From Patescibacteria group bacterium (GTDB lineage Bacteria > Patescibacteriota > Patescibacteriia > Magasanikbacterales > GWA2-37-8): DNA of 64,000 nucleotides. How positions within the stretch are numbered: position 1 is the first letter of the stretch; every line of letters starts with the position of its first letter. The notes beneath the pieces are model-generated. The model was not told the origin of the DNA. It worked only from the letters and a program-made list of their open reading frames with translations, and searched no databases. Made by a program: the position numbers and the translations under genes. Below are positions 25,268-58,186 of the stretch, one piece after another. The stretch spans positions 750,594 to 814,593 of the forward strand of contig JBAZNA010000001.1 in assembly GCA_041649475.1 (NCBI GenBank), in the 5' to 3' direction.

Positions 25268-25278
25268 AATCGTTAAAA

Positions 25279-29150: not shown

Positions 29151-29162
29151 AAAAGTACCGCC

Positions 29163-30089: not shown

Positions 30090-30121
30090 ATTTGTATAAA
30101 ATTATATAAAAAGGTGCAGAT

Positions 30122-30151: not shown

Positions 30152-30166
30152 GTTTAAAAATCGAGT

Positions 30167-30781: not shown

Positions 30782-30786
30782 AAAGA

Positions 30787-40051: not shown

Positions 40052-42012
40052 AAATATTCTTTTTTAATTTTTTCCTGATTATGAAAAAATTTTCCGCCTT
40101 TACGGCCATACCAGATTATTTCTCTGGCGTAATCCGGTAAATTGCCGCCAAATTCTTGGATATCAGAAAAGATAAGTTTATTTTTAACTTTTATTAATTC
40201 CGGCTTGTCCGTACCTTTATAAAATTCATTAAAATATTTATTAAAATCATAATTTAATTCCAATGCCATAGTTTTCTGACAATACGGATCAATCACCATT
40301 TGACCAGTATAATTTATCAAATCGGCGATCTTATCGGCCGGGATGTTTTTAAAATAAGACAGTAAATAATTTTTTAACTCATTATAAAATGCGGCTTTAT
40401 CACTAATAAAATTTAAAAACGACCCTTCTTCTATTGTCCAGGTGACTTCGCCGAATTTGGCAATCACAAATTCCCAGCTTTTTCCTTGGGTCACACCGTC
40501 AATAATCGCCGAAATAAATTTCAGTTCGCGGCCCAGGATTGAATTGGGATTGTTCTCCGCGTAACTAATCAAATCCTGATAAAAATGCGTGTAAGAAATC
40601 TGACATTCATTATGGGCAAATATAGCTACAAATTGCATTAGGCCCAAACAATGAAAGCACTGAATCGCCCAGGAAAAAATACTGGCCTTTTTCCAGTCCG
40701 CCACCGGCATGGTTGCGGTGGCGATGACAATTTCGTCATACTCCGGAACAACCTTAGGGTCAGGCATAGAATGAGGCAGGCAGGCCGGAATGCTGACGCC
40801 TTTAATGCCGTAAAGCTCCTGATATTTTTTATCACCCATGATTGAATTGGGAAAAATTTCGCAATTATAAACATTGATGGAGCTGTGTTGGCCGTTTTCA
40901 AGCAAAATATCCAGGCCCTGGCAATATGAATCATAGGTTTCATTGGGCAGACCCAAAATAATCTCCGTGTAAGTGGGGATGCCTTCATTGTTATATTGCT
41001 GCAACAGCTCTTTAAAATTATCTATGCGCATGTTGATACGGCCGACGGCTTCAAGGGTGCGCGGATTTAAACTCTGAAAAGACAAAGTTACGCCTTTACA
41101 CATCTTGTTTTTATTAAGCTCCTTGTTCATTTCAAAAATGGTTCGATTGCTGTTTTTGGCGTAGGAAGTGCGAAATTTTTGCGGAAAACCGTATTTATTT
41201 TTTATCTCAATGAATTTTTTTATAAAACCGGTATCTCTGGGCAGAATGCCAAAATTGGAATCACAGCCAAACACAAACTCCACTTTATTTTTACCAAACC
41301 ATTCAATTTCGTCTTTGACTCTTTGCTCGTCAAAAGGCAGGATCCGTTTACAATTCATCAACGGTGAACCCCAATCACAATAAGCACAGCCATACGGACA
41401 CCCCCGGTTGGTCTCCAAACTGGCCGTAAAAGAATACGGCGATGATTGGACAATTTTATCAAATACGCCAGTCAAGTATGGCGATGGAATTTTATTAATA
41501 TCAATGTCCCCTTTTTTTATTTCCGTACGCATGGTATTGCCGTTAACGTTTATGCTCAAATTATTTATACGAGAAAAATTTTTATCATCGGATAAATAAG
41601 TTACTAGAATTTCTGAAAAAGGCACTTCGCCGTCGCCATGGACCAGTATGTCTATAAATTTACGGTTTATAAAAAAATTCTCTGACTCAAACGGAACCTG
41701 GTGGCCGCCGAACACCACCAGACAATTCGGATATTTTGATTTAACTCGCTCGGCCAATTTTTGATTATATTCAAAATTCCAAATGTAAGAAGAAAAACCG
41801 AAAACATCCGGTTCTTCCAATTTTTCCACCACTTCGTCAATGTTGTCTTTTAAAAATAAATTATCTTTAAATTCAAAATTTTCCCTGATCCGGGGAATGG
41901 TAAGACAATAACTGGTGATTACACCCGTGGAATACGGCAGAAAAACATTATTGCCGTATTTATTATTCACCTGACACATGTAAACGTTTTTCTTTATCAT
42001 AATAAATCGCAC
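40048..42012 (-). CDS. B12-binding radical-SAM enzyme
   Basis: N-terminal B12-binding-like domain; TNRGCPYGCAYCDWG (CxxxCxxC); 654 aa. Confidence 0.75.
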   Translation of the reverse strand: MRFIMIKKNVYMCQVNNKYGNNVFLPYSTGVITSYCLTIPRIRENFEFKDNLFLKDNIDEVVEKLEEPDVFGFSSYIWNFEYNQKLAERVKSKYPNCLVVFGGHQVPFESENFFINRKFIDILVHGDGEVPFSEILVTYLSDDKNFSRINNLSINVNGNTMRTEIKKGDIDINKIPSPYLTGVFDKIVQSSPYSFTASLETNRGCPYGCAYCDWGSPLMNCKRILPFDEQRVKDEIEWFGKNKVEFVFGCDSNFGILPRDTGFIKKFIEIKNKYGFPQKFRTSYAKNSNRTIFEMNKELNKNKMCKGVTLSFQSLNPRTLEAVGRINMRIDNFKELLQQYNNEGIPTYTEIILGLPNETYDSYCQGLDILLENGQHSSINVYNCEIFPNSIMGDKKYQELYGIKGVSIPACLPHSMPDPKVVPEYDEIVIATATMPVADWKKASIFSWAIQCFHCLGLMQFVAIFAHNECQISYTHFYQDLISYAENNPNSILGRELKFISAIIDGVTQGKSWEFVIAKFGEVTWTIEEGSFLNFISDKAAFYNELKNYLLSYFKNIPADKIADLINYTGQMVIDPYCQKTMALELNYDFNKYFNEFYKGTDKPELIKVKNKLIFSDIQEFGGNLPDYAREIIWYGRKGGKFFHNQEKIKKEYL

Positions 42013-44149: not shown

Positions 44150-45169
44150 TTAATTCAATTCCGCTTCGACCATTATCTTAACCAGTTCTTTAAATTTAAC
44201 TTTGGCTTCCCAACCCAGTACCCGTTTGGCTTTTGACGGATCACCCAACAATAATTCAACTTCGGCTGGACGGAAATATTCAGGATCAATCTCAACCAAA
44301 ACCTGGCCGGTGGTTTTATCTATTCCCTTTTCTTCCAAGCCGCTGCCTTCCCATTTCAAATCAAAGCCAAAATAGCGCGCGGTTTCTTCAGTAAACTCTC
44401 TGACGCTATGGGCTTCGCCGGTGGCAACCACATAATCATCGGGCTGGGGCTCTTGGAGCATCAGCCACATTGCTTCCACATACTCTTTGGCATAACCCCA
44501 GTCGCGCCTGGCTTCCAAATTACCCAAATAAATTTTATTCTGCTTACCGGCCTTAATTTGCGCGAAGCCGTGAACAATCTTTTTAGTCACAAACGTGCCG
44601 CCGCGCCGGGGCGATTCATGGTTGAATAAAATACCATTACAAATAAACATTCCGTAGGATTCGCGATAATTAACCGCCAGATTATGGGCAAAAACTTTGG
44701 CGCAGCCGTATGGACTCCGGGGATAAAATGGAGTGGTTTCGGTTTGGGGGGTTTCCTTAACTTTACCAAACATTTCCGATGACCCGGCCTGATAAAATTT
44801 AACCTTCAGACCGCTTTCCCGCACCGCGTCTAAAACCCGCAGAGTGCCCAGGCCGACCGTATCGCAGGTATATTCCGGAAGTTCAAAACTGACGCGCACA
44901 TGGCTCTGTGCTCCCAAATTATAGATTTCATCCGGCTGAACCTTTTCTAAAATTCTGTTGATATTACTCCCATCGGTCAAATCTCCGTAATATATTTTCA
45001 ATCTGGCGTCTTTCTCATGTTTCTCCTGAAAAATATGATCAATGCGGCCGGTATTAAAACTGCTTGAACGCCTGATGATGCCGTGGACTTCATAGCCCTT
45101 GCCTAATAAAAATTCAGCAAGATAAGAACCGTCTTGCCCGGTCAAACCAGTGATAAAAGCTTTTTTCAT
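44150..45169 (-). CDS. gmd: GDP-mannose 4,6-dehydratase
   Basis: [46 protein letters not shown] closely matches E. coli Gmd. Confidence 0.9.
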
Positions 45170-46686
45170 ATTATATTTTCTTCATTTTTATATCCAATTT
45201 TTCTCAATTTAAACAGATTATAGGCCGGATAAGCAAAAATACTTATAACCATATACCAATAAAACCACAATTGGGCGTTTGCATCGCCACCGGTCAGCTT
45301 GAAATTGATTAACCAAATTACATGAAAAAATATCGGGGATAAAATAATCCAGATCGCTGCCCTTTTTAGGTATTTGCTGACATTAATGACATTGGCGATA
45401 ATGGCCAGCGGGAAAAACCAAAGCATGTACCACGGCCAAACCCATTTATGCCAGAAAATCATGTAAACAAGCAAACTGGCTAATAACACAGAGATGAACT
45501 CCGTTTCGCTCCAACTGGCTTTTTTAAACAAAATTAAAAACATTTTTTTAATAATCGGATACATCATGAATAAAACTAAGGCGATTAAACTGAACTGCAC
45601 AACTCTGGTCAGATACCAATGAAAATTCGCGCCGATCAAAAACTGGAACAACGGCTTTAGAGAATAGTAAATAGCGGCGAAGGTGCTGCCGCCCGCCGTC
45701 TTTGACATTTTGCCAAGGGTGGTAAAAACTCCCAAACCATTCCAAAAATGACCCCAGGATAAAATAGTGATTAGTACAGAAAGTGCGACTCCAATTATTT
45801 GCTGGCCTACCAGCTTGGTCCAATTATCTTTATGAACATCCTGCCACCATTTAACTATGAAGAACGGGATAAAAAAAGCCGGAATAATTTTAATCCAGAT
45901 GCCCACGGTTAGGGCCGGCAATACCAGCCACCACTTTTTTTTCTGGGCGAACAAAATAGCCAAAATCACAAAAACCAGCCACAAAATATCTTGATGACCG
46001 GTCGAGAGTCCTTCAAACAGCATGAGCGGCTGCAAACACCACAGTAACCAAAAACCGTTTCGGCTAAAATCGCAACCCATTGATTTCAAATATTTATAAA
46101 CTAACCATCCGCCAAACAGAAAAAGAATCATGACTGTTATTTTCCATAAAACTATAAAGGCCAGTACATTATCCTGGCTTAACTGATAAACAGCGCCAAA
46201 CGTCCTGGCCATTAACGGTCCATAAGGAAACCGCTCATTGAAATATTTCACGGGAGGGTTTACAAAATAATTATCCCGATACCAATCTTGAGTAAATAAA
46301 TTTAGATCAGTGTGCTGTTCGGCTTTTCCGGCATAAAAATAGTAAACTATGTCACCCGAGGAAAAAGGCACAACCAACAAAGCCAGGAACAAAAAAAGAA
46401 TAACCGTGACTATGGTCTTTTTTGTTGAAATTTCTTCTTTGGCTTTAAATGACTTCCAGATAAATATTCCTGAACACACCAGACAGATTATACTAAATGC
46501 GAAAGATAAAATCAGGATCGCCTTAAGCGGTGAGTTTAAATTCTCCGAACAAAAAAGCCAGCTCTGACCAAAATAACACGATTTCGCCAAAATTTTTGAA
46601 TACTCCGCGACCGAAAACCCGGCCAGAGTTCCCCACCCCAACAGCCCAAAAATTACCGCTTTTTTGAAATTGGACATACTACTCAC
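45166..46686 (-). CDS. Large polytopic membrane protein (possible GT-C glycosyltransferase)
   Basis: 506 aa with at least 12 TM segments and no soluble domain. Confidence 0.35.
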
Positions 46687-47983
46687 GATTAGTTAAAAAC
46701 TCCGCAAAACTATTTATAATAAAATCCAGCATTTCCTTGCTGAGCCCCGGATAACAGCCGATCCAAAAAGTATTATTCATGACCAGATCAGTATTTTTTA
46801 AATCCCCCACTGTCCGATACTTAACTTTATTGTCAATAAAATACGGCTGTTTGGTTAAGTTGCCGGCGAATAAATATCGCGTCGCAATTTGCTGGTCCTG
46901 CAAAAACTGGACCAGTTCGGCGCGCTTAAACGGCGCGTCTTCTTTGACTGTCAGTAAAAAGCCAAACCAGCTCGGGTCTGCTTTTTCGTGCCACACCGGC
47001 AAAATAAAATATTTCTCAAATTGTTTTAAGCCCTCATACAAATACTGAAAATTGTCTTTGCGTTTTTGGATAAAACCGTCCAGTTTTTCCAATTGAGCCA
47101 CACCTAAAGCGGCCTGGATGTCAGTGGCTTTTAAATTATAACCGATTTCGGAATAAATATATTTATGATCATAACCAAACGGCAATTCCCCCAGCTGCCA
47201 ATCAAACCTCATACCGCAGGTGTTATCATTGCCGGTTTTGCACCAGCAGTCCCGTCCCCAATCGCGCATTGATCTGACCGCTCGGTTTAAAACATCGTCA
47301 TTAGTAAAAACCGCCCCCCCCTCGCCCATGGTGATGTGATGGGCCGGATAAAAACTGCAGGTTGAGATATGGCCGAAAGTGCCGGTATATTTACCGCCAA
47401 ATTTTGAACCCAGAGCGTCGCAATTATCTTCAATAAACCACAAATTATTTTCCTGACAAAGTTTTACTATGGCATCTAAGTCACATGGGTTCCCCATGGT
47501 GTGAGCAATCATTATAGCTCGGGTCTTCGGGCCAATCGCCTTTTTAATTTCTTCAACATTCGCATTATAGCTTCCCAAATCTATATCAACAAAAACCGGC
47601 ACCAAATTATTTTGAATAATTGGATTAACAGTAACCGGAAATCCGGCCGCGACCGCAATCACCTCGTCCCCATCTTTTAGTCCTTTATCCTCCAGCTTGG
47701 CAGATTTCAAAGCCGACAAAGCCAATAAATTGGCTGAAGAGCCGGAGTTGACCACACTGACATGATTAATTCCCAGCCATTTTCCAATTTTTGCCTCAAA
47801 CAAATCAGTAAAACGGCCTTCTGTCCACCAGCCATCCAAAACCGCTTCAGTCATTGATAAAATTTCTTGAGCATCAAAAACCTTGCCTGATACCGGCACG
47901 GGCGACTGCCCGGGAATGAATTTTTTGGCTGAAAACTTGGCTCTATACGCCTCTTCTAGAGCTTTTTGCAAACTTTCTTCCAT
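46679..47983 (-). CDS. RfbH/DdhC (E1)-like NDP-4-keto-6-deoxyhexose 3-dehydratase (DegT superfamily)
   Basis: KFIPGQSPVPVSGKVFDAQEILSMTEAVLDGWWTEGRFTDLFEAKIGKWLG mirrors the RfbH N-terminus (...YIPVSGKV...ASLDGWLTTGRFN...); 434 aa. Confidence 0.65.
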   Translation of the reverse strand: MEESLQKALEEAYRAKFSAKKFIPGQSPVPVSGKVFDAQEILSMTEAVLDGWWTEGRFTDLFEAKIGKWLGINHVSVVNSGSSANLLALSALKSAKLEDKGLKDGDEVIAVAAGFPVTVNPIIQNNLVPVFVDIDLGSYNANVEEIKKAIGPKTRAIMIAHTMGNPCDLDAIVKLCQENNLWFIEDNCDALGSKFGGKYTGTFGHISTCSFYPAHHITMGEGGAVFTNDDVLNRAVRSMRDWGRDCWCKTGNDNTCGMRFDWQLGELPFGYDHKYIYSEIGYNLKATDIQAALGVAQLEKLDGFIQKRKDNFQYLYEGLKQFEKYFILPVWHEKADPSWFGFLLTVKEDAPFKRAELVQFLQDQQIATRYLFAGNLTKQPYFIDNKVKYRTVGDLKNTDLVMNNTFWIGCYPGLSKEMLDFIINSFAEFLTNRE

Positions 47984-48033: not shown

Positions 48034-48408
48034 TCAAATTTTGAAGACAAACCTTTTGTTTAAAAAGAAGGCGACAAAGGCCATCGGCAAAATCAGAATC
48101 GCCCCGCCAATATAAGCGCTTATTTGTGCCAAACTGAACAAATACAACCCCAAAACATTTAAAATATAGGTCACTCCGTAAACTCCAAAAAACTTGAAAA
48201 TAAGCCAATTGTTATGGGAATTGAAAACAATGACGCCGGTAGTTTTAAAATTAAACAAGATTCCCAATATTGTGCCCAGGAACGCCGCCAGCGCGTAGTG
48301 CAGGCCGACAAACAATAATAAAGCAAAAACCCCGTAGCCAAACAGAGTATTAATCCCCCCCACGATTAAGAACCGAATGAATTGATTTTTAAACAATTCT
48401 TGCCACAT
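48034..48408 (-). CDS. gtrA: GtrA-family membrane protein (polyprenyl-P-sugar flippase accessory)
   Basis: FIRFLIVGGINTLFGYGVFALL; 4 TM segments in 124 aa. Confidence 0.7.
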   Translation of the reverse strand: MWQELFKNQFIRFLIVGGINTLFGYGVFALLLFVGLHYALAAFLGTILGILFNFKTTGVIVFNSHNNWLIFKFFGVYGVTYILNVLGLYLFSLAQISAYIGGAILILPMAFVAFFLNKRFVFKI

Positions 48409-48410: not shown

Positions 48411-49355
48411 TTAATCAAAATTTATTCGTTCCTTTTCTATTACTAACGGTTTGTGCTTAACTTGCGTATAAATTGCCCCAATATATTCGCCCAGGACCCC
48501 GATAAAAAATAACTGGACCGAACCTAAAAAGAAAATCCCAATTGTTAAAGGCGCCAGGCCGGCTTCAAACCGACTCCAGAAAAGCAATTTATAAATAAAA
48601 TATATCAACCCGACCAGTAAGCTAACCAAGGATAAGCCAAAACCAATAAAACTGGCCAAGCGCAGCGGTATTTTGGAGTGATTGACAAATCCCAACATGG
48701 CCATGTCATACAGGGTATAAAAATTATTTTGTGACTTCCCTTTTTTTCTTTCGGCCTGGGTGTATGTCACTTCAGCGCGCGGAAACCCGATTTCGGTAAT
48801 GAGTCCCCGAAAATATGGATACGGATCGTCAAACTTTCGTAGGGCCTCAATAAATTTTTGGTCATACAGCCCAAAGCCGTTAAAATTTTTAATTTGCTCA
48901 TTCTCGGCAAATTTGCCGATCAAACCATAATATATTTTGCGAATCGCGAACATTACAGGGTTTTCATCGCTTTTATTTTTTATGCCAATAACGACCTTAT
49001 AACCCTCTTCCCATTTTTTAATGAAGTCATTTATAACCGCGGGCGGTTCTTGTAAATCAGCGGCCAACATAACAACCGCGTCCCCTTGCGCTTTAAGCAA
49101 AGCATAATATGGCGAACGGATATGGCCAAAATTTCTGGCATTGACAATAATTTTTACATTTTTATCTTCCTTGGCGATATTTTTCAAAATATTTACGGTT
49201 TCATCTTTGGAATCATTGTCAATAAAAATATGCTCATAATCGTACTGCGGAAAATTGGCAAAAAGCTCTTTTACCTGCTCTCGCGCGGCCGCCACATTAT
49301 CCTGTTCATTATAAGTAGGTGTAATGATGCTGATTTTTTTGCGAAATTCAGACAT
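48411..49355 (-). CDS. gtrB: GtrB/ArnC/Dpm1-like GT2 polyprenyl-phosphate sugar transferase
   Basis: ISIITPTYNEQDNVAAAREQV...IFIDNDSKDETV plus two C-terminal TM segments; sits next to gtrA. Confidence 0.75.
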   Translation of the reverse strand: MSEFRKKISIITPTYNEQDNVAAAREQVKELFANFPQYDYEHIFIDNDSKDETVNILKNIAKEDKNVKIIVNARNFGHIRSPYYALLKAQGDAVVMLAADLQEPPAVINDFIKKWEEGYKVVIGIKNKSDENPVMFAIRKIYYGLIGKFAENEQIKNFNGFGLYDQKFIEALRKFDDPYPYFRGLITEIGFPRAEVTYTQAERKKGKSQNNFYTLYDMAMLGFVNHSKIPLRLASFIGFGLSLVSLLVGLIYFIYKLLFWSRFEAGLAPLTIGIFFLGSVQLFFIGVLGEYIGAIYTQVKHKPLVIEKERINFD

Positions 49356-49359: not shown

Positions 49360-49827
49360 TTATTTTAAATATTTTTGAATTTTTTCCCACAATTCTTTAT
49401 GATTTTCAATAATATTTTTTGGCATTTTTTTAAAAAATTTACCCTGTTTGGGGGTCATAAATGTTTTGCAAAGAAAAGTTAGAGAAACAACGTGACCGCG
49501 GGAGGCCTGGCTGCAATCTTTGGCAAATAAAAATTTAGCACTTTCCAGGTTAACGCCGAGTTCTTTCCAAGCCACCGCATCTATGCGTTCCTCAAAAGTT
49601 TCCCGGAAACGCATCAAGCCACCGGGAAAATGCCAACCTCTCCACCATTTATCACTGCGCCAGGTAAGCAGGAGTTCGCCTTTTTTATTCACCACCGCCA
49701 GTTCACAAGCCACAAACGGAACAATACCTAACAAGGCATCAAAAACCGGCTGGGGCAGGCCCTCATGCGGATTGTCTATTTTTTTGAGCAGTGAAGATAA
49801 TTGTTTTAGCTCTTTGGCAGTAAGCAT
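49360..49827 (-). CDS. NUDIX hydrolase (possibly GDP-sugar glycosyl hydrolase, NudD/Gmm-like)
   Basis: 155 aa with a NUDIX-box-like GGLMRFRETFEERIDAVAWKELG; the box is degenerate. Confidence 0.4.
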   Translation of the reverse strand: MLTAKELKQLSSLLKKIDNPHEGLPQPVFDALLGIVPFVACELAVVNKKGELLLTWRSDKWWRGWHFPGGLMRFRETFEERIDAVAWKELGVNLESAKFLFAKDCSQASRGHVVSLTFLCKTFMTPKQGKFFKKMPKNIIENHKELWEKIQKYLK

Positions 49828-49831: not shown

Positions 49832-51505
49832 TTATTCTTTATACATCCCCGCTAACCATTTTTCCAGCATGGGTTGACTGGGATCAAGCATCAGCTCGCA
49901 GACAATCGGACCATTATGATTCATAACTTTTTTTAACTTGTCCAACTCATTATCGTTGTTTATCCGTTCATAAGCCAAACCCCAGGCCGGAATAAGCTTG
50001 CTGAAATCCGGCAGAGTCACACCTGAAGACGGATCGGCGGCAAAAATCTTCTTGAAAAAATTTAAATGGGTGTTCCTAATTGAGTAATAACCATTATTAT
50101 TAAAGATAAATATTTTTAACGGCAAATTATGGTGGACAACTGTTTGCAATTCTTGAATATTGAACATGATTGAACCGTCGCCTTCACAGCATATAACCGG
50201 TTTTTTATTTTCAGCCACGCAGGCGCCAATGGCCAAAGGCAAACCAGAACCCATATGTCCTAACCCGGCATTGGTGATAAATCGATGACCATGCGATATC
50301 TTAAGCGCCTGATGAGAAGTCAAACTGGCCATGCCATTGGCTGTGGCCACATCCATTTTTTCCGGCCAATTATTTAATTCATTGAAAAATCTATAAACAT
50401 TAAGATATTTTTTATCGCCGACATAATTATCCGGATTGATTGGCTCAACCGGCACATCCCACCTGTTTAAATTAATATCCTGTTTATATAATTCTTCCAA
50501 AAATAATTTGGCATCACAATGAACCGGAACATCTATTTTAATGGTTTTTTTATGCATTTCATTTTCATCTATATCAACCATTATTTTTTTTGCCTGGACC
50601 GCAAATTTTTCATGTTCCCAGGAAACTTGCGTGAGCTGTATGCGTTCACCCGCAATTAATAATAAATCACAATTATCAATCGCATAATTGGCTGCTTGAT
50701 TTCCCGGCATCCCCTGCCTGCCTAAATAATACGGATAATCATAGGTAACCAAATCATCAGCAGTAAAAATCGGCGTAACCGTATTGATTTTAAATTTATC
50801 CAGAACTTTCCATAAAATTTCCTCGCCGCCGGCCAAACGAATGCCATTACCGGCCAAGAGCAGCGGTTTTTTTGCCTCCCGCAATAGTTGGGCTATTTTT
50901 TCCATTAAAGCCGGATCCAAAACCGGTTCTTTTTCATCAAACTCGGCCGGGTCAAAAGATTTTAAATTTTCCGGTTCTATTTCCGCGGCCTGCATATCCA
51001 ACGGAATTTCCACAAACACCGGACCGGGTCGATTATGGGTTGATAAATATAGCGCTTTTTCCAAATGATAACGAATTTCTTTTTCATCTAACACAGTCAC
51101 GGTATATTTGGAAACCGGTCTGACCACATCCACTACATTTAATTCTTGCATACCAATTTGTCTGACAACCGGAACTCCGTTTTGGCACGGAGCAATATCA
51201 GCTCTTTTTACTTGCCCGGCAATAACCAGCACCGGAATACTATCAAGCCAGGCGCCGGCCATGCCTGTCAAAGCATTTGTCCCGCCCGGACCAGTGGTAA
51301 CCAAAGCCACACCTGGAGAATTTTTTATCCGGCCATACCCCTCGGCGGCAATGGCCACGGCCTGTTCATGATGACAACAATAATTTTTCAGACCGGATTT
51401 TCCCAGAGAATCAACCAGATGCATAATTCCGCCGCCTGATACCAAAAAAACTGAATCAGCCACTTTTTCCTTTATAAATTGAAAGACATAATCGCTAAGT
51501 TTCAT
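49832..51505 (-). CDS. Thiamine-diphosphate-dependent enzyme of the acetolactate-synthase large-subunit family (YerE-like candidate)
   Basis: N-terminal Pyr domain (HEQAVAIAAEGYGRIKNSPGVALVTTGPGGTNALTGMAGAW) and C-terminal PP domain (GLGHMGSGLPLAIGA...GDGSIMFNIQEL); 557 aa. Confidence 0.8.
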   Translation of the reverse strand: MKLSDYVFQFIKEKVADSVFLVSGGGIMHLVDSLGKSGLKNYCCHHEQAVAIAAEGYGRIKNSPGVALVTTGPGGTNALTGMAGAWLDSIPVLVIAGQVKRADIAPCQNGVPVVRQIGMQELNVVDVVRPVSKYTVTVLDEKEIRYHLEKALYLSTHNRPGPVFVEIPLDMQAAEIEPENLKSFDPAEFDEKEPVLDPALMEKIAQLLREAKKPLLLAGNGIRLAGGEEILWKVLDKFKINTVTPIFTADDLVTYDYPYYLGRQGMPGNQAANYAIDNCDLLLIAGERIQLTQVSWEHEKFAVQAKKIMVDIDENEMHKKTIKIDVPVHCDAKLFLEELYKQDINLNRWDVPVEPINPDNYVGDKKYLNVYRFFNELNNWPEKMDVATANGMASLTSHQALKISHGHRFITNAGLGHMGSGLPLAIGACVAENKKPVICCEGDGSIMFNIQELQTVVHHNLPLKIFIFNNNGYYSIRNTHLNFFKKIFAADPSSGVTLPDFSKLIPAWGLAYERINNDNELDKLKKVMNHNGPIVCELMLDPSQPMLEKWLAGMYKE

Positions 51506-51508: not shown

Positions 51509-52441
51509 TTACACATCTTTAAGCAAATATTCTACAGCGCTATGCACTCTGCCTATCGGAGAAAGTTCTAATCTGTGTAAAAGATAAGGAGGTTTTTCCA
51601 AATCATTCTTCGTTGTTAAAAATTCCTCCGAATTTGTAAAGCTATAGGGGAAACTCAACAATCCTATATCATTTCCACCGGGCATATCCCCAAAAGTGGC
51701 CACCTGAAAATTATCCAATCCTGTCAATTTTAAAATCGTTTTAATTGCCGTCGCCTTGCCGTCCTCTCCGAATTTTTTGGTAATCTCCATAAAATTTTTT
51801 CCTGATATGGCAACAAACTCTTTTCCAAGTTCAATTCTAACTCTCGCTGTTATATCTTTGCCCAAACTTTTATCCTTCGGTAAAACAAAAGTAACTTTTG
51901 CATTCTCTGTAAATATTTCTCCGTTATAAGGCCGGCAGACTGCCAAAATTTCAACCGGAATATAACCTTCCCAATCTTCCTGCAAAAAATTACTAAATGT
52001 CTCTAAACCTTCCTCTGATAAGTCGCCCCTGCTAATACCTAATTCTTGATACACTTTTCTTCCGGCGGCAACCGCGTGAATAATTTGTGGTAATTCAAAA
52101 CCATGATTATAGATTTCAACCATTTCATCCTGTTTCACTTCGTAGAGAATCGCACCGTTGCCTCCGGAAATAAATACGGGAGTAACAATATTCTTTCTCT
52201 TTAACAATTGCTGCAATGGCGGCCCCAGGGTCTTTAAGGCCGTAGCGGCCCGGCCGGTGATAAAAGCAATTGATTTATTCTTATCCAAAATTTTTTCCAC
52301 CAATCTAATTGCTTCATCAACCTTATAATCAATGCCATTATAAACAGTGCCGTCATAATCCAAACCAAACAATTTTATTTTTGCTACGGCCTCTGCTAGT
52401 TTGGTCCTGGTTACGGCAAAATGTTTTTCCATGTTAGACAA
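51509..52441 (-). CDS. HAD-IIB (Cof-like) sugar-phosphate phosphatase
   Basis: LFGLDYDGTV is HAD motif I (DxDxT); a C-terminal GDMPGGND matches HAD motif IV. Confidence 0.55.
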   Translation of the reverse strand: MSNMEKHFAVTRTKLAEAVAKIKLFGLDYDGTVYNGIDYKVDEAIRLVEKILDKNKSIAFITGRAATALKTLGPPLQQLLKRKNIVTPVFISGGNGAILYEVKQDEMVEIYNHGFELPQIIHAVAAGRKVYQELGISRGDLSEEGLETFSNFLQEDWEGYIPVEILAVCRPYNGEIFTENAKVTFVLPKDKSLGKDITARVRIELGKEFVAISGKNFMEITKKFGEDGKATAIKTILKLTGLDNFQVATFGDMPGGNDIGLLSFPYSFTNSEEFLTTKNDLEKPPYLLHRLELSPIGRVHSAVEYLLKDV

Positions 52442-55025
52442 TCCAATATGTTAACGTGGTCTTGCGATTTTTATTGCCCAGTATGCTCTCGTCGTCATAA
52501 TAGGAATCCCCGGGAATGTGGGTGGTTGAAATCTCTTCAAAAACACAGCCATTTTTACTGCCGAATGAATGCTTGGTTCCGCGTTCCAAGGTAACAATAT
52601 CCCCGGCTTTGCTTTCAATCGGTTTGCCGTCAACAACGAAGGTGGCATCCCCATACAAAACATGAAATGTTTCTTCTTTTATTTTATGGTAATGACACGG
52701 ATGCTGTTGGCCGGGCAAAAGAACAATTAATTTTTTGCAATATTCCCGGTTAAGACAAGTGATTAAACTGGCTCCGTATTCATAAAATTTATCTAAACCA
52801 TAATGATGGGAAAGATCAAAATCCCATTTGTTGGAGATGGCGATATTGGCTTGCCTTAAAAGTTTATTAATTTTTTCCACAGCCTCATAAACTTTCTCGC
52901 GGGATTCCATTTTGGCAACATCCGCAGCCATAATCGGTTCTTTGGCCTTAAAATCCTTTGTGGCCGTAAAAATCGTATATTTTGACAGTTCGTTAGCCAA
53001 AATTTGCCCATCCTGATTGGGGAAGGCAAAAAAGGTATTTTTCATATCAACTTTCTCGCCGGCTTTAATATCAACAGCGGCATATGCTCCTCTTTGAAAT
53101 TGGCGTATATCGGCCAGCTCTTGTGGGGCAAAGTCATGTCTTTTTCCGCTAACCCCGCGCATTCGGTAGGCCTGCCGGGCAGATTCCAGCCATTTTTTAA
53201 CTTGCTCGGGCAGAGCTGAATAGGCATTAAGCGCATATTTATCGGTTTTGACTCCCACATGCTTTTCAAAAATTCGCGCGCCTTTAGCCACGGCCATTTT
53301 TATGGCCTCAAAATTATCAGGCGCTTCATGGGTGGAATAACCGATGGTAACTTCAGGATATCTCTCCCGCAGTAAAGTTATCTGATTAAATTGCAGTTGA
53401 TCTTCCGGAGTCGGGTATTGGCCAACGCAATGCATGATGGCAAATTTTTTATTGCGATGCTCCAGGAAACTGACTACCTTATCAATGTCCTCCAACTTCA
53501 CTCCGCCAGTGGAAGCGATAATCGGTTTGTCATATTGAGCAATCTTTTCCCAAAGCGGCCAGTCGGTAAAAGAGGCGCTGGCAACTTTTATAATATCGTA
53601 ATCATGACTGACCACATTTTCCACTGACTTTTCATCAAAGGGAGTACAAATGGTTAGAAAACCAAAATTTTTGGCTTCATTTTTCAACATTAAAAATTGT
53701 TCCGCAGACAGCCGCGTCTCGGAAAAACGTTTAATATATTTCAAATCCATTCTGTCTTTATAATCAGGATGAATAAAGGTATCCAAATCCCGGTACTGAA
53801 ATTTAAAGGCAAACTGAAACTCGGGAAAATCCTTGCTGACTTCATGCATTTCCCTGATAATTTTTAGCCCATGTTCAACATCACCCATGTGATTATTGGC
53901 CATCTCAAAAATGAATAACGGCTTGGTCTCCTTCTCTCCTTGCGGGCTGAATATTTGTTCAATATTTTCCATAATATTAGTAAAATCTCCTTGTAAAAAA
54001 TTAATTGTTCGTTTAATTGCTTCTTCCAGGCCAACCGTTTCCTTAAGACCTAATTCTGTCTGCGCTCTTTCGGTGGAGGGCACATATTGTTCCGGCGGCC
54101 CATCTTTGGCTGTTTGAGCTATTTTAACTTCAACCGGACGCTTTAGACATTGTGCCACCTTTTGGGCCAATTCCGCAATAGTGACACACATTTGCGAACC
54201 GACATTATAGGGCCGGCATGATTGTCCTTTAAAAAGAATTGTCCATAACCAAACCATCAGGTCAGCCGCGTAGAGATATGAACGAACGGTTGTGCCATCA
54301 CCCTTAACCTGAATTGGACCGCCGTTTGAACCATCCCGGATAAAATTGCCGACCGCATAATGAACATCCAAGGGCAGATGAGGACCAACGAAACTGAAAC
54401 AACGCGCAATTTTTATTTCTATGCCATATTTATTGGCATAATATCCGCAGAGAAACTCGGCTGCTCTTTTACTCTCTCCCCAAACCGAGTTAATATCTGT
54501 CGGATCAGGCGCGCCATTATATTCTTCCGGGATATTACTGATATCAGCTGGCTGTTTCCCATAAACAACCCCGGAACTGGTATAAAGAAATTTTTTAGCT
54601 CCGGAGTGGACGGCAAAATCCAGAGTGTGTCTTGTTCCTTCTACTACCGTCTCAAATTTCACCAATGGATCTTCATTATTAAAGGTGGCTACAGCCGAGG
54701 TGGCGGCGGCGTGGATAATATGTGAAAATTCTCCAACCGGAAACTCAAAATTTCTGACATCGCCAATCTGAAATTTTATTGCCGAATTATCGGCCAGATG
54801 CGGCGCTTTCTTTTTAAATTCTTCCAAACTTCTGGTCAAAACAACGGCCTCGGCCTGCAGATCAAATTTTTCATTGGCTCGGATAAAACTTTCCAAAAAC
54901 CAACAGCCAAAAAATCCGGTACCGCCGGTGATAAACAAGCGCTTGCCTCTAAGTTCTTCCCAAAGGCCCGGAGTCAAATTTAAAATTTGATCCAAATCGT
55001 TTGTAAGCGGGTTTATATCACTCAT
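52434..55025 (-). CDS. Four-domain fusion: extended-SDR epimerase/dehydratase, NeuB-like ulosonic-acid synthase, SAF domain and C-terminal cupin
   Basis: SDR: LFITGGTGFFGCWFL. NeuB: PLFIFEMANNHMGDVEHGLKII...IMHCVGQYPTP. SAF: ...KAGEKVDMKNTFFAF. Cupin: HPCHYHKIKEETFHVLYGDATFVVDGKPIESKAGDIVTLERGTKHSF. Confidence 0.7.
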   Translation of the reverse strand: MSDINPLTNDLDQILNLTPGLWEELRGKRLFITGGTGFFGCWFLESFIRANEKFDLQAEAVVLTRSLEEFKKKAPHLADNSAIKFQIGDVRNFEFPVGEFSHIIHAAATSAVATFNNEDPLVKFETVVEGTRHTLDFAVHSGAKKFLYTSSGVVYGKQPADISNIPEEYNGAPDPTDINSVWGESKRAAEFLCGYYANKYGIEIKIARCFSFVGPHLPLDVHYAVGNFIRDGSNGGPIQVKGDGTTVRSYLYAADLMVWLWTILFKGQSCRPYNVGSQMCVTIAELAQKVAQCLKRPVEVKIAQTAKDGPPEQYVPSTERAQTELGLKETVGLEEAIKRTINFLQGDFTNIMENIEQIFSPQGEKETKPLFIFEMANNHMGDVEHGLKIIREMHEVSKDFPEFQFAFKFQYRDLDTFIHPDYKDRMDLKYIKRFSETRLSAEQFLMLKNEAKNFGFLTICTPFDEKSVENVVSHDYDIIKVASASFTDWPLWEKIAQYDKPIIASTGGVKLEDIDKVVSFLEHRNKKFAIMHCVGQYPTPEDQLQFNQITLLRERYPEVTIGYSTHEAPDNFEAIKMAVAKGARIFEKHVGVKTDKYALNAYSALPEQVKKWLESARQAYRMRGVSGKRHDFAPQELADIRQFQRGAYAAVDIKAGEKVDMKNTFFAFPNQDGQILANELSKYTIFTATKDFKAKEPIMAADVAKMESREKVYEAVEKINKLLRQANIAISNKWDFDLSHHYGLDKFYEYGASLITCLNREYCKKLIVLLPGQQHPCHYHKIKEETFHVLYGDATFVVDGKPIESKAGDIVTLERGTKHSFGSKNGCVFEEISTTHIPGDSYYDDESILGNKNRKTTLTYWIV

Positions 55026-55028: not shown

Positions 55029-56120
55029 TTAGTCGCGATACAGTTTGCGCTCTTCCGGCTTAATATAATCTTCCTCATTAAACACTTCATTATATGACAC
55101 CGGTAATGGCTTGCCATATACCTTTGGGACAATATATTTATTAATAAAATCTTTATCCTCGGCCATATAACAGGACTCATAATACTGGCCAAAATATTTT
55201 ATATTTAGTCCTCTCTCAATAATGTCTTTAAGCGGTTCCTTGAAAAAATTCCCCAAGGAAACATGCATATACGGACAGGGCATCACGTCGCCATATTTGG
55301 TGATGGATATCATTCTCTTGACGGCAATACAGCCCAAATCCATGCCATATGACGGGGTTAAATGGGTGAAAGCATCGCACTCTTTTTCCAACCCGCGCAT
55401 ATAATTCATATCGTCTTTGTCCACCATGGCCTCAAAGTTCCCTTCCCAATCCCCGACCGGTTTGGCATAGGTGACAAAAACCGGCACGCCTTTTTGATTT
55501 AAAAATTTTAAAAAATCTTTAAATTCTTCCGACTTCAAGCGCTGTTTGGTAACAACGGTTTGCACAATAATATATAACCCGACTTTCTGGCAGGCCTCAA
55601 TTGCCCGCAAGGCGTTTTGGTACGCACCCGGTCTCTTTCTAAAATCATCATGGGCTTGGCTGTCCAAACTGTCCAAACTTAACTGGACTTTATCAACGCC
55701 AATATCTTTTAAATGTTTGGCTTTAGCTTCATCCAAAAACCAGCCGTTGGAATCGGAAACAATATAAAATTTCTGCGGATCAATGGCTTTAATTATTTCA
55801 TCAAAATCCGGAAACACCAGGGGTTCGCCGCCGGTAAGCACAATCTGCGCCAAACCCATCTCATCGGCTTGCCTGGCCAATTCTTTTACATCAGCCGGGG
55901 TAAAAGCCCGGTCTCCGGCCGGACGCCGCAGTTTGGTAATGCAACAGTGCTCACAACGAAAATTACAGGTGTAATCATACTGAAACTGAAGCATGGCAAT
56001 ACTTTCGCCTTTCTTGATCTTTTCTTCAAACTTCATTATTTTTTCATAAACATACGGTTTCGTTTCTTTTAATGTGTTCCTCCGGCTGGTTTCCGCTGCC
56101 TTTAATTCTGGTTGAGTCAT
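55029..56120 (-). CDS. Radical-SAM enzyme with a Cys-rich C-terminal (SPASM/twitch-like) extension
   Basis: YDYTCNFRCEHCC (CxxxCxxC), plus additional C-terminal Cys (...DVMPCPYMHVS...ESCYM). Confidence 0.65.
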   Translation of the reverse strand: MTQPELKAAETSRRNTLKETKPYVYEKIMKFEEKIKKGESIAMLQFQYDYTCNFRCEHCCITKLRRPAGDRAFTPADVKELARQADEMGLAQIVLTGGEPLVFPDFDEIIKAIDPQKFYIVSDSNGWFLDEAKAKHLKDIGVDKVQLSLDSLDSQAHDDFRKRPGAYQNALRAIEACQKVGLYIIVQTVVTKQRLKSEEFKDFLKFLNQKGVPVFVTYAKPVGDWEGNFEAMVDKDDMNYMRGLEKECDAFTHLTPSYGMDLGCIAVKRMISITKYGDVMPCPYMHVSLGNFFKEPLKDIIERGLNIKYFGQYYESCYMAEDKDFINKYIVPKVYGKPLPVSYNEVFNEEDYIKPEERKLYRD

Positions 56121-56124: not shown

Positions 56125-57255
56125 TCAATTTAAGATTAAAACGGCCATCCCATTGTACTTTTCATGTATGATTTTAGCAACCTCATCAGCATAACTGCCG
56201 GCCATAATAATAATCGCCTCAACCGGATCAGAATTTAATTTTTCCGGAGCCACAATTGGTATATGCGTGGCCGGGGTGAATTTGCCCTGTTTAAAAGACG
56301 CGGAGTCAACAACATATTTAATTTTTCCTTCCAGATTCAATAAAGCCAGAGTCGCAAACGCCTGATGCCCGGCTCCCCAAACCGCTACCTTGCCGGGCGC
56401 AAACCGATTAATATAGTCCTCAATCTCTTTTTTAAGTTTTGCCTGTTTGTCGGAAAATAAAGCCAGGTCGGTTTTTCTTCTTTTTTTAACGACAGCGGAA
56501 ATTATATAATCATGCCAAACCTCTTTGCACTCCAAAACCTCAAAACCATTTATTTGCAAGGTTGTTTTCAGGGTTTCTTTGGTAAAATAAAACAGATGGT
56601 CGCGCATGAATTCTGAAAAAAGATTGTCCCGCAAAATCATGTCAAAGTTCGGCACCTCCACTATGCCAACCGCGCCGTCAGCCAAATTATTACTTATTCC
56701 GGCAAGCATTAGATTAAGATTTGGCAGATGTTCCAGCCAGCTTAAAACAAAAAAAGCGTCAAAGGGCGAATTGTCTATTTTGTAATCTTCTGTTTCTACA
56801 AATCCTTTACTAACTTTTAAACCATTTTTTAAGCACTGCGCCGCCGAGTCATCACCGTATTCCAAACCATAGGCATCGGCACCGGTTTGAGACATTATGG
56901 TCAAATACTCTCCCCTGCCACAGCCAATTTCAATGATTTTTTTACCGGCGAGAGAATATTTTTTGACAAAATCTTTAAACTGGCCGGATCGAAACTCTTT
57001 CATCTCCGGTGAAATCCCGGCCGCGCGTATGACTTCTCTATAATAAGAAACTGGTTCGCCAACCAGTTGCACTAGACCGCAACCCGCGCACTGATAAATT
57101 TCCAAATCCATCCCTTTATCCCGCGCGATTGTTGCCTCATCCGGTAAATGCTGGGCAACCATTGGCATGTTCTCATATTTTAACAGGGGTTCCGCCAACA
57201 ATGCCTTACCGCAAACCCGGCAATTATTTTTTGATAAAATGCTGGTACCATGCAT
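56125..57255 (-). CDS. NDP-hexose C-methyltransferase (TylCIII/Methyltransf_13-14 family)
   Basis: N-terminal Zn-binding CRVCGK...YQCAGCGLVQL, then IIEIGCGRGEYL (motif I), and a C-methyltransferase C-terminal domain. Confidence 0.65.
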   Translation of the reverse strand: MHGTSILSKNNCRVCGKALLAEPLLKYENMPMVAQHLPDEATIARDKGMDLEIYQCAGCGLVQLVGEPVSYYREVIRAAGISPEMKEFRSGQFKDFVKKYSLAGKKIIEIGCGRGEYLTIMSQTGADAYGLEYGDDSAAQCLKNGLKVSKGFVETEDYKIDNSPFDAFFVLSWLEHLPNLNLMLAGISNNLADGAVGIVEVPNFDMILRDNLFSEFMRDHLFYFTKETLKTTLQINGFEVLECKEVWHDYIISAVVKKRRKTDLALFSDKQAKLKKEIEDYINRFAPGKVAVWGAGHQAFATLALLNLEGKIKYVVDSASFKQGKFTPATHIPIVAPEKLNSDPVEAIIIMAGSYADEVAKIIHEKYNGMAVLILN

Positions 57256-58186
57256 AGGTTTCTTTTACTGCCGACTCAAAATCAGAATGTGGCGACCATC
57301 CCAAAATTCTGTCCGCTTTGGCAAAATTCAAACTTTGGCCCGGTATCTCATTTTTCTGATTATTTAAAATCTTATAATTTATTTTTACATCAATAACTTT
57401 AGAAATCTTTTCAATGAGATCCAGCACGGAAACATTTAAACCGGAACTGAAGTTAAAGGCCTCGCCTTGTGTTTTATCAATATTTTCCGCCAAAGACAGA
57501 TATCCATCCACAACATCTTTCACATAAATATAATCCCGTTTAAACGTGCCGTCACTGCGCAAATCCAAAACATTGCCGGTTATTGCGGCCATCATGATTC
57601 CCGGAACAATCCTGTCCATATTTAAATCCCCGGGGCCGAAAATATTACCGCAACGGCTGATAGCCACCGGCAATTTATAGGTTCTGTAGTAAGTGCGCGC
57701 GACTAAATCAGTGCAGGACTTGGAAACATCATAGGGATGATCGCCGGACAAAGCAAAATTCTCATCGGCATTCTGGCAATTTTTTCCGTAGGCCTTATCG
57801 CTGGAGGCCACTACCACGGCCTTGATATACGGTGAGTGTCGGGCCGCTTCCAAAACATTAACCGTTCCCATTATATTTGAAGCAAAGGTCTCGTATGGAT
57901 TTATAAAAGCGGCAGTGACAATCGGCTGGGCCCCGATATGAAAAACATGGCTGATTTCATACTTTGTCAAAATTTCAAACATCCGGTCTTTATTTTTAAG
58001 ATCGCCGTTTACACGAACTACTTTAGAACCAAAATTATTTGTTTCAAAATATGAATTCGGATCACAGCTGCGACTCAAACAAACTATTTGACGCGGTTGT
58101 AGCTTTAAAAGTTCCTCAACCAGATGAGAACCGACCAACCCGGTGGCGCCGGTTACAAAAATATTTTTTCCGGTGAGCGTGCTCAT
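57224..58186 (-). CDS. NAD-dependent epimerase/dehydratase (CDP-sugar reductase/epimerase candidate)
   Basis: KNIFVTGATGLVGSHLVEELL and HPYDVSKSCTDLV (YxxxK). Confidence 0.7.
   Translation of the reverse strand: MSTLTGKNIFVTGATGLVGSHLVEELLKLQPRQIVCLSRSCDPNSYFETNNFGSKVVRVNGDLKNKDRMFEILTKYEISHVFHIGAQPIVTAAFINPYETFASNIMGTVNVLEAARHSPYIKAVVVASSDKAYGKNCQNADENFALSGDHPYDVSKSCTDLVARTYYRTYKLPVAISRCGNIFGPGDLNMDRIVPGIMMAAITGNVLDLRSDGTFKRDYIYVKDVVDGYLSLAENIDKTQGEAFNFSSGLNVSVLDLIEKISKVIDVKINYKILNNQKNEIPGQSLNFAKADRILGWSPHSDFESAVKETYAWYQHFIKK

Follow-up and report, generated by a model that had tools for sequence, protein, structure and literature searches.

The 64,000-nucleotide stretch analysed here (the window) covers positions 750,594 to 814,593 of contig JBAZNA010000001.1 in the assembly GCA_041649475.1 of a Patescibacteria group bacterium, and the element under study is a predicted sugar operon on its minus strand that contains one unbroken open reading frame (ORF) of 863 codons at 52434-55025, as taken from the ORF listing of the window. 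Approximately 60 window ORFs of at least 120 residues were scanned against the Pfam and TIGR/NF profiles and the features of the locus are collected in Table 1. Within the 863-residue protein, which is on record as NCBI MFA5062291.1 (Patescibacteria metagenome-assembled genome, MAG; 963-kb contig), Pfam placed Epimerase/GDP_Man_Dehyd at residues 31-340, NeuB at residues 407-625 (147.3 bits against a threshold of 22.1) and Cupin_2 at residues 767-822, with Lyx_isomer (PF07385) also above threshold over part of its profile (26.4 bits against 20.8). An open frame of 863 codons at 41% G+C in which four domains score above threshold lies far outside what chance would give. The Pfam SAF profile gave no significant match in the 863-residue protein and a weak match in the Thermodesulfovibrio orthologue. 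The TIGR03569 alignment covered residues 371-696 and profile positions 3-327 of 329, and since this match runs nearly end to end the SAF/AFP-like C-terminal part of NeuB was counted as included. The same domain is present by structure, PDB entry 3g8r superposing with a template-modelling score (TM) of 0.91 (Foldseek on an AlphaFold2 (AF2) model). Of the four domains named in a preliminary description of this DNA, three were recovered with the Epimerase, NeuB and Cupin_2 profiles and SAF via TIGR03569 and structure.

Table 1. Features of the operon around the 863-codon ORF (window positions; SDR, short-chain dehydrogenase/reductase; ThDP, thiamine diphosphate; ALS, acetolactate synthase; SAM, S-adenosylmethionine; NDP, nucleoside diphosphate)
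Feature	Position	Strand	Basis
RfbF-like glucose-1-phosphate cytidylyltransferase	58208..58996	(-)	TIGR02623, 277.9 bits (cut-off 300)
CDP-glucose 4,6-dehydratase-like SDR (YDVSK)	57224..58186	(-)	TIGR02622, 197 bits (below the cut-off of 278)
NDP-sugar C-methyltransferase (Methyltransf_13/14 type)	56125..57255	(-)	Pfam
Radical SAM/SPASM enzyme, directly upstream of the SDR	55029..56120	(-)	Pfam
Extended-SDR domain, fusion residues 1-351	53973..55025	(-)	Pfam Epimerase, 112.7 bits
T6 homopolymer at the SDR/NeuB junction	53995..54000	(-)	junction sequence and insertion simulation
Internal ATG (Met352), ancestral start of the NeuB-cupin gene	53970..53972	(-)	~510-residue homologues all start there
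NeuB-family TIM barrel, ~residues 367-640	53106..53927	(-)	Pfam NeuB, 3g8r, AF2/Foldseek
SAF/AFP-like beta domain, ~residues 641-707	52905..53105	(-)	TIGR03569, 3g8r alignment to residue 705, model strands 295-356
D-lyxose/D-mannose-isomerase-like cupin, ~residues 708-863	52437..52904	(-)	Cupin_2, Lyx_isomer, 2y0o/7nzo
HAD-IIB (Cof-type) phosphatase	51509..52432	(-)	Hydrolase_3, 39.5 bits against 20.9
ThDP-dependent YerE-like carboligase (ALS superfamily)	49832..51505	(-)	three TPP_enzyme domains; JanthE 8rph best match
NUDIX-fold protein, weakly GDP-mannose mannosyl hydrolase-like	49360..49827	(-)	profile match, weak
GT2 polyprenyl-phosphate glycosyltransferase (ArnC/PgfS-like)	48411..49355	(-)	profile matches
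GtrA-family small membrane protein (flippase-associated)	48034..48408	(-)	Pfam GtrA_DPMS_TM, 57 bits
RfbH/E1, CDP-6-deoxy-L-threo-D-glycero-4-hexulose 3-dehydrase	46679..47983	(-)	NF011936, 692.8 bits against 423
506-residue polytopic membrane protein without Pfam match, candidate GT-C-type transferase	45166..46686	(-)	inference; GT87 gene at the same position in locus L006

The four-domain SDR-NeuB-SAF-cupin fusion of the preliminary description stands as far as the ORF and its domains are concerned, but it is a singleton join of two neighbouring genes and not a defining architecture. In a search of 5.8 billion proteins the exact protein was followed, among the matches listed, only by NeuB-plus-cupin proteins of ~510 residues (residues ~352-863, 58-77% identity), and the best 120 homologues listed for the SDR half were all stand-alone SDRs of 343-399 residues. 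No second SDR-NeuB fusion was found in the best 120 NeuB-cupin and best 120 SDR homologues, in 86 related loci or among 1.84 billion representatives scanned exhaustively with HMMER, where a true fusion would outrank all other matches; with these 240 homologues, 86 loci and 1.84 billion representatives lacking a second case, a recurrent or Rosetta-stone architecture was rejected. Relatives with an SDR upstream carry it as a separate gene with its own stop codon and a spacer of 26-90 nt before the next gene.

In the window the frame runs uninterrupted from the SDR through the T6 run to the ancestral ATG, and an AAGGAG lies 14 nt upstream of that ATG. Simulated insertion of one T into the run created a stop codon and gave two genes, a 349-residue SDR with a C-terminus of orthologue length, ending 4 nt before the ATG, and a NeuB-cupin protein of 512 residues, so that the question of a frameshift raised in the preliminary description has a divided answer: the ORF is continuous as read, but a single extra T would split it. 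The fusion is either a recent one-base deletion or a homopolymer error. That the true sequence holds seven T residues, with two genes as in the relatives, and that the fusion is an artefact of sequencing or assembly would fit both the restored stop codon and the uniqueness of the fusion among billions of proteins. This is nevertheless somewhat unlikely, as both domains stay intact in frame, no other frameshifted or broken gene was seen in the rest of the 64-kb window and the exact 863-residue product is on record in four sources, including Logan's independent read-based assemblies; on the last two grounds the fusion was put as probably real. Two adjacent genes of a widely conserved sugar operon are joined in frame in this ORF, a lineage-specific union that, on comparison of gene orders, would bring together the last gene of one sub-module and the first gene of the next. 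The singleton fusion itself matters little, and the question of an artefact is independent of that of function.

Sequence comparison identifies the conserved unit as the ~510-residue NeuB-SAF-cupin protein, with its D-lyxose-isomerase-like cupin. With one genome scanned per species and matches counted at 53-76% identity, its carriers number at least 577 species, both bacterial and archaeal. Bacterial carriers include Patescibacteria, Nitrospirota, Desulfobacterota, Planctomycetota, Bacteroidota, Verrucomicrobiota, Lentisphaerota and cyanobacteria such as Dolichospermum and Microcystis, and archaeal carriers include Methanoperedens, Nanoarchaeia, Altiarchaeota and Micrarchaeota. The closest solved relative by far is 3g8r (397 bits, ~55% identity, against 77-91 bits for true NeuB/PseI), and the AF2 model of NeuB-cupin, with a predicted local distance difference test score (pLDDT) of 90, matched NeuB/PseI structures including 1xuu and 8h2c at TM 0.72-0.75 in Foldseek, which together with the Pfam score confirms that the middle domain belongs to the NeuB superfamily. 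Alignment to Neisseria meningitidis NeuB (1xuu) showed the equivalents of E25, K129, S132, S154, S213, H215, E234 and H236 to be conserved, and these metal and phosphoenolpyruvate (PEP) positions are invariant or nearly so in 43 homologues, a point that the preliminary description had marked for checking. On the sugar side, E134 is replaced by Ser, N184 by Gly and R314 (in the SAF domain) by Phe. The roles given here to residues of the N. meningitidis enzyme (metal, PEP and sugar side, including E134, N184 and R314 as N-acetylmannosamine (ManNAc)-binding residues) are those of the NeuB literature, and PDB entries 4ipi and 4ipj are R314 mutants. Scores against the equivalog profiles fell below both cut-offs (TIGR03569, 146.1 against 399.65 bits; TIGR03586, 133 against 340.25 bits). 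Membership of a NeuB/PseI/KDN-type equivalog (KDN, keto-deoxynononic acid) was given up on these scores and the three replacements, and a canonical sialic or pseudaminic acid synthase was rejected on the same two grounds and on gene context. A literature search found no paper on the function of 3g8r or describing the properties of the cupin-fused clade, and no such clade in the nonulosonate-synthase phylogeny, a plasmid search for an annotated NeuB-cupin example returned canonical PseI genes only, and the one cupin-less 3g8r-like representative examined (P0458) has an unrelated gene context.

The sequence of the cupin domain matched PDB entries 2y0o and 7nzo (E ~3e-8). In Foldseek it superposed on 2y0o with a TM of 0.69 and a root-mean-square deviation (rmsd) of 1.9 Å over 166 columns at 27% identity, and on 7nzo with a TM of 0.71; this match to D-lyxose/D-mannose ketol-isomerases spans the whole chain, including the N-terminal helix. 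The metal motif HxH...KxE...H (H427, H429, K432, E434 and H468 in NeuB-cupin numbering) aligns to that of 2y0o, and all five residues are invariant or at least 90% conserved in 43 homologues. By fold, sequence and metal site the cupin thus appears D-lyxose/D-mannose-isomerase-like, with a predicted isomerase activity.

Gene neighbourhoods were surveyed by tblastn of the window proteins against the 86 loci, and percentages refer to the 54 loci in which both flanks reach 5 kb or more. The ThDP enzyme was present in 94% of loci, the CDP-glucose 4,6-dehydratase-like SDR in 80%, RfbH/E1 in 76%, the glucose-1-phosphate cytidylyltransferase (RfbF) in 72%, the radical SAM enzyme in 63%, the NUDIX protein in 54%, the C-methyltransferase in 50%, GT2 in 31%, the SDR of the fusion (which lacks the catalytic Tyr, see below) in 24% and HAD-IIB in 13%. 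In 58 of 68 loci the start of the ThDP gene lies within 2.5 kb downstream of NeuB-cupin, on the same strand. Outside the candidate phyla radiation (CPR) the usual order is RfbF, dehydratase, RfbH, NeuB-cupin, a ~0.6-kb gene and the ThDP enzyme, with RfbH directly upstream of NeuB-cupin (~-1.3 kb) in most loci, and in Thermodesulfovibrio and Microcystis the genes in this order abut or overlap. As previously described, NeuA and NeuC are absent from the window: no CTP_transf_3 (NeuA) or Epimerase_2 (NeuC) match was obtained among its ~60 ORFs, and a KdsB probe found nothing there. The same single-sequence KdsB probe, which is of limited sensitivity, detected no KdsB/NeuA-type gene in 84 of the 86 loci, and PF02348 was not found in the Pfam-annotated loci. 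The other two loci carry NeuA/PseF-like genes 4-10 kb from NeuB-cupin. An Endomicrobiales MAG (L023) provides the only complete locus with NeuA/PseF-like genes near NeuB-cupin, at positions ~0.2-1 kb and 6-6.9 kb of the locus, and these cytidylyltransferase genes probably belong to a neighbouring pseudaminic/legionaminic acid (Pse/Leg) cluster.

The presence of a HAD-IIB gene adjoining the fusion, as first reported, was upheld by the Hydrolase_3 match (Table 1) and by intact DxDGT (DYDGT), TGR and GDxxxxND (GDMPGGND) motifs, with a score below the TIGR00099 subfamily cut-off (36.9 against 137 bits). The HAD ORF of 310 codons (51509-52441) overlaps the end of the fusion ORF; translation probably begins from the ATG at 52432 (1 nt beyond the TAA of the fusion), which gives 307 residues as in the orthologues, and the gene is predicted to be translationally coupled to the fusion. 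However, HAD-IIB occupies the slot between NeuB-cupin and the ThDP gene in six loci only, all of a CPR subgroup, and was rejected as a universal partner. Its low frequency led to the finding of a different protein of ~190 residues, beginning WDVDDVLN, in the slot in about 42 loci. Sequence methods gave little for this protein (Pfam NT5C at 23 bits, below the cut-off; profile against the PDB, E = 0.05; hhalign against single window HADs, probability <3%). Its AF2 model (pLDDT 95) returned listed PDB matches that are nearly all of the HAD superfamily, the best being 5'(3')-deoxyribonucleotidase-like at TM 0.65-0.75, and these two methods settle the predicted fold as NT5C-like HAD. A further, different HAD stands in the slot in one locus, and the metagenomic representative P0379 (723 residues) is a natural NeuB-cupin-HAD_2 fusion (HAD_2, 124 bits; HAD-IA). 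Three non-orthologous HAD types thus accompany the synthase: a HAD-IIB neighbour in CPR, an NT5C-like neighbour elsewhere and the fused HAD-IA of P0379. The tie of three unrelated types to one synthase is strong comparative evidence, from sequences and models, that the phosphatase step is conserved by non-orthologous displacement and that dephosphorylation belongs to the pathway of the synthase.

The best PDB match of the window ThDP enzyme, in which the ThDP motif GDGS...NN is present, was JanthE (8rph) at 357 bits, with true acetolactate synthases at 210 bits or less; the Thermodesulfovibrio orthologue, 43% identical to it, reached 411 bits against JanthE and at most 259 bits against true acetolactate synthases. 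The second-best match for the ThDP enzymes, ahead of the acetolactate synthases, was 5ahk, which is probably PpYerE. Through JanthE (8rph/8rpj), a characterised YerE-like, ketone-accepting carboligase (PMC12188165), the ThDP enzyme appears to group with the ketone-accepting YerE-like carboligases. JanthE and 3g8r both come from violacein-producing Betaproteobacteria (Janthinobacterium and Chromobacterium, respectively). In the clusters of ErwE, MMAR_2332 and MyGE the donors are C4-C8 hydroxylated alpha-keto acids from a cluster-encoded aldolase, a reductase follows, and the products are the branched 3,6-dideoxyhexoses erwiniose, caryophyllose and gastriose (Steitz et al., 2022, PMC9306805). 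No class II pyruvate aldolase of the type found in branched-sugar clusters is present in the operon studied here; a NeuB-type synthase holds the place beside the ThDP gene.

The operon should make CDP-4-keto-3,6-dideoxy-D-glucose, as expected from the RfbH equivalog score and the E1 hallmarks of this protein together with the RfbF-like and dehydratase genes. The hallmarks of the 434-residue RfbH are SFYPAHH, in which His replaces the Schiff-base Lys, and the C246xC248x7C256 Fe-S motif. CDP-4-keto-3,6-dideoxy-D-glucose is the known acceptor of YerE. E1 normally needs a partner reductase, E3 (AscD type). The RfbH-like DegT proteins outside CPR are 541-561 residues long (8323-10008 in L004; 19072-20591 in L088), ~110-130 residues longer than that of the window, and the extension could carry the missing redox partner function.

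The SDR domain keeps the Rossmann motif TGGTGFFG, an NADP-type Arg65, Ser151 and Lys186, with Trp182 at the Tyr position (W182-G-E-S-K). The WGESK reading had been noticed before, and it is real: YxxxK is present in all eight other window SDRs. The best PDB relative by sequence is a UDP-glucuronate decarboxylase (104 bits). Among 121 close orthologues the Tyr column holds Trp in 80, Leu in 21, Tyr in 18 and Val in one, and the Rossmann motif, the NADP-type Arg, Ser and Lys are invariant; Trp at this position is a trait of the clade and not a local mutation, and the usual catalytic Tyr appears dispensable in these extended SDRs. The gene stands directly upstream of NeuB-cupin or directly downstream of the radical SAM gene, the latter order occurring in seven of eight loci, and a metagenomic representative (P0481, 694 residues) is a natural fusion of the SDR with an ArnC-like GT2. 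A further protein (P0390, 620 residues) holds two SDRs in tandem. On gene order and the SDR-GT2 fusion the SDR was grouped with the radical SAM, methyltransferase and glycosyltransferase side, and would then belong functionally to the tailoring and transfer end of nucleotide-sugar metabolism, not with NeuB. The fused keto-deoxy (non)ulosonic acid pathway originally proposed is not supported as far as the SDR is concerned, the fusion being a singleton.

With good confidence we assign the cassette to a ThDP-linked pathway for branched CDP sugars and not to a sialic-acid pathway, and the ulosonic acid is most likely an intermediate consumed in making the branched CDP sugar. The following mechanism starts from the domain identities, conserved catalytic residues, gene linkage and structural assignments observed above. 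The cupin would isomerise a ketose or ketose phosphate from central metabolism to a lyxo- or manno-configured aldose, which the NeuB domain, with its PEP and metal residues intact, would condense with PEP, the product being a 3-deoxy-2-ulosonic acid, free or phosphorylated. Dephosphorylation by the adjacent HAD would act on the ulosonate or, ahead of isomerisation, on the ketose. The YerE-like carboligase would then decarboxylate the ulosonate and add the acyl-anion equivalent to C4 of CDP-4-keto-3,6-dideoxy-D-glucose, supplied by the RfbF-like, 4,6-dehydratase and E1/RfbH genes of the same operon. Reduction of the new side-chain ketone would fall to the SDR and tailoring of the sugar to the C-methyltransferase and radical SAM enzymes, and its delivery through polyprenyl phosphate to a surface polymer would be the task of GT2, GtrA and the membrane transferase. 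The predicted product is a 3,6-dideoxyhexose bearing a long 1-hydroxy-2-deoxy-polyhydroxyalkyl side chain, comparable to gastriose or caryophyllose. All substrates and the order of the steps are inferred from sequence, and for the six-step mechanism as a whole the chances of its being right or wrong appear evenly balanced. The same balance applies to the classification of the cassette, by analogy, as a PEP-dependent version of the published acyl-branched-sugar scheme (PMC9306805), of which it was classed as a variant and not a member because a NeuB-type synthase stands in place of the class II pyruvate aldolase. That a NeuB-type synthase with a built-in isomerase and a phosphatase was recruited to supply polyhydroxylated alpha-keto acids to a YerE-like carboligase is offered tentatively, as an idea that falls a little short of an even chance.

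The proposed pathway accounts for the missing CMP-transferase, the close grouping of NeuB, HAD and ThDP genes, the presence of CDP-sugar genes and the altered residues for sugar binding; it can do without a CMP-ulosonate synthetase because the ulosonate would be consumed as the ThDP donor. Several points weigh against it. The assignment of the ThDP enzyme rests on its similarity to JanthE, for which a review names no physiological substrates; YerE-like enzymes accept C2-C8 donors (PMC12247030). Most orthologues of the SDR proposed as side-chain reductase are without the catalytic Tyr, no role could be given to the NUDIX protein, and the cupin fold alone is compatible with action on an NDP-4-ketosugar, as in CapF. 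Neither the window nor the annotated loci (L001-L006 and L088-L090) yielded an E3 (AscD type), and roughly one locus in four has no RfbF/G/H within 10 kb. A survey by Krug et al. in 2024 reportedly covered more than 200 YerE-like clusters in silico. The literature searched, the scope of which did not extend to that survey, yielded no paper linking NeuB-type synthases to YerE-type enzymes or acyl-branched sugars.

The phosphatase had originally suggested a route like that of KDN-9-phosphate or Neu5Ac-9-phosphate (Neu5Ac, N-acetylneuraminic acid), and here the coupling to a phosphatase is sustained by the three HAD types, but a free KDN- or Neu-type end product is unlikely beside the ThDP and CDP-sugar partners. 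In that account NeuB-cupin and HAD would make such a free end product, to be CMP-activated by an enzyme encoded elsewhere, and the ThDP and CDP-sugar genes would be unrelated. The NeuB-family core with its intact PEP and metal residues agrees with it, as do the conserved phosphatase, which parallels the KDN-9-phosphate and Neu5Ac-9-phosphate phosphatases, a mannose/lyxose-isomerase-like cupin that would supply mannose or mannose 6-phosphate, and the two loci with NeuA/PseF-like genes. However, no KdsB/NeuA-type gene was detected in the window or in the great majority of loci, the scores lie far under the NeuB and PseI equivalog cut-offs with the sugar-binding residues replaced, and the ThDP gene, present in 94% of loci, abuts or overlaps the phosphatase gene, a linkage that recurs across Bacteria and Archaea and is much closer than an unrelated pathway would lead one to expect; we regard this account as highly improbable. 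An account that retains the CDP sugar would have NeuB add PEP directly to the C4 keto group of a CDP-4-keto-(3,)6-deoxyhexose and so create a three-carbon 2-oxo-acid branch (compare shewanellose), which the ThDP enzyme would decarboxylate or extend, with the cupin acting as an NDP-ketosugar epimerase or isomerase as in CapF. The position of RfbH directly upstream of NeuB-cupin in most non-CPR loci would suit this chemistry, the replacement of all three ManNAc-binding residues is compatible with a very different acceptor, and CapF (SDR plus cupin, acting on a UDP-4-ketosugar) is among the Foldseek matches. Yet the CapF match has a TM below 0.25, whereas free-sugar D-lyxose isomerases match the cupin over the whole chain; the conserved phosphatase, in three HAD types and one of them fused, is left unexplained; and the ThDP enzyme falls among the ketone-accepting carboligases and outside the simple 2-oxo-acid decarboxylases. 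We know of no NeuB-family enzyme that uses a ketone acceptor, and this account is considered unlikely.

A third account would resemble Pse/Leg biosynthesis: the NUDIX protein would free a 3,6-dideoxyhexose from the CDP sugar, the cupin would isomerise it, and NeuB with PEP would give a trideoxy-nonulosonic acid for the ThDP enzyme or for export by a different route. NeuC, PseG and LegG are nucleotide-sugar hydrolases that act ahead of NeuB, PseI and LegI and offer a parallel, and a NUDIX gene with a weak match to GDP-mannose mannosyl hydrolase is present in over half of the loci. However, the gene is missing from about half of the loci, the Nudix box of the window protein is degenerate (GLMRFRETFEERIDAVAWKELGV, with the canonical R-E and the first E of E-E replaced), the phosphatase is again unexplained, and without a nucleotidyltransferase for the product GT2 would lack a donor. 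As a separate pathway this is very unlikely; it is possibly a variant of the ThDP-linked branched-sugar pathway.

If the ThDP-linked pathway is correct, it would constitute a widespread, undescribed route to very long-branched (C13-C15) CDP-activated 3,6-dideoxyhexoses, and a new class of surface sugar is predicted on CPR, DPANN, methanotrophic archaea, cyanobacteria and other phyla, among them the Patescibacteria and DPANN archaea, the little-studied envelopes of which would bear an unusual, heavily tailored sugar. The NeuB family would gain a new role as donor supplier for ThDP carboligation and the acyl-branched-sugar scheme a PEP-dependent branch, and physiological donors would be indicated for YerE-like enzymes such as JanthE. 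Thousands of 'N-acetylneuraminate synthase' and 'spore coat protein SpsE' labels would then not signal sialic-acid-like sugars, and surveys that infer sialylation or host mimicry from counts of NeuB homologues would be affected. Cultured carriers exist in Microcystis aeruginosa and Thermodesulfovibrio, and in biocatalysis a set of synthase, isomerase, phosphatase and carboligase could give chiral tertiary alcohols with polyol chains.

The whole 64 kb forms a continuous glycan-biosynthesis island, a very large share of a tiny genome (probably ~1 Mb). Its ~60 genes all lie on the minus strand except a GT4 gene at 10105-11292 (+), and the GC skew is negative throughout. Immediately upstream of the operon are a 681-residue Wzy_C O-antigen-ligase-like protein with C-terminal TPR (59006-61051; L003 has the same Wzy_C arrangement) and a 914-residue lamin-tail (LTD) protein (61136-63880). 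A complete-looking NDP-heptose module at 27079-31794 comprises transaldolase, nucleotidyltransferase, GmhB-like HAD, SDR, GmhA-like SIS isomerase and GHMP kinase, and could supply sedoheptulose or heptose phosphates close to the NeuB-cupin operon. Genes at 33166-35370 and 40048-42012 encode two radical SAM proteins of the B12-binding type, the first (734 residues) fused to a class I SAM methyltransferase domain, and genes of similar kind flank the cassette in L001 and L004. Other features are a 733-residue protein that joins a GT2 glycosyltransferase to a PMT_2 (GT-C) membrane domain at 14486-16687 and, at 23245-26223, a NodU/CmcH-type carbamoyltransferase adjoining an aspartate/ornithine carbamoyltransferase-like gene; this pair suggests carbamoylated sugars.

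Among known systems, NeuB, PseI and LegI (PF03102) share the TIM barrel, the SAF/AFP-like domain and the PEP/metal machinery with the present synthase, but differ in their ~24-26% identity, in having no C-terminal cupin and in their linkage to NeuA/NeuC/PseF/PseG-type genes, where ThDP and CDP-dideoxyhexose genes are found here. The Chromobacterium violaceum protein 3g8r, a structural-genomics entry named 'probable spore coat polysaccharide biosynthesis protein E', is of the same NeuB subclade with the MANNHMG motif in common; it shares the E134 and R314 substitutions, with Ala and not Gly at N184, and is without a cupin domain. The D-lyxose/D-mannose ketol-isomerases 2y0o, 7nzo and 3kmh have the same cupin fold and HxH...KxE...H motif (26-27% identity, rmsd ~2 Å), whereas here the domain is fused to a NeuB-type synthase and its isomerase activity is predicted. 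In CapF/WbjC an SDR and a cupin likewise share one polypeptide of a nucleotide-sugar pathway, but there the domains are adjacent in a conserved unit, whereas in the window a whole NeuB enzyme lies between them. The KDN-9-phosphate synthase/phosphatase of Bacteroides, NANS/NANP of animals and KdsA/KdsC likewise pair a PEP-dependent synthase with a dedicated HAD phosphatase; unlike these phosphorylated ulosonate routes, the present cassette has HAD-IIB, NT5C-like or HAD-IA phosphatases and not KdsC-type C0 HADs, no cytidylyltransferase follows and the isomerase is fused to the synthase. The clusters of YerE (yersiniose), ErwE (erwiniose), MMAR_2332 (caryophyllose) and MyGE (gastriose) share most of their parts with the present cassette, namely genes for CDP-4-keto-3,6-dideoxyglucose (here RfbF-like, 4,6-dehydratase-like and E1), a YerE-like carboligase and NAD(P)H-type reductases. 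Both the acyl-branched clusters (PMC9306805) and the present cassette encode a C-C-forming enzyme able to supply a hydroxylated alpha-keto acid, the donor coming there from a class II pyruvate aldolase and here, as proposed, from a NeuB-type synthase that uses PEP, carries an isomerase domain and is accompanied by a phosphatase. The present cassette differs further in its lack of a detected E3 and its additional C-methyltransferase and radical SAM genes, and its hosts are CPR, DPANN and many uncultured phyla, in which no such sugar has been described.

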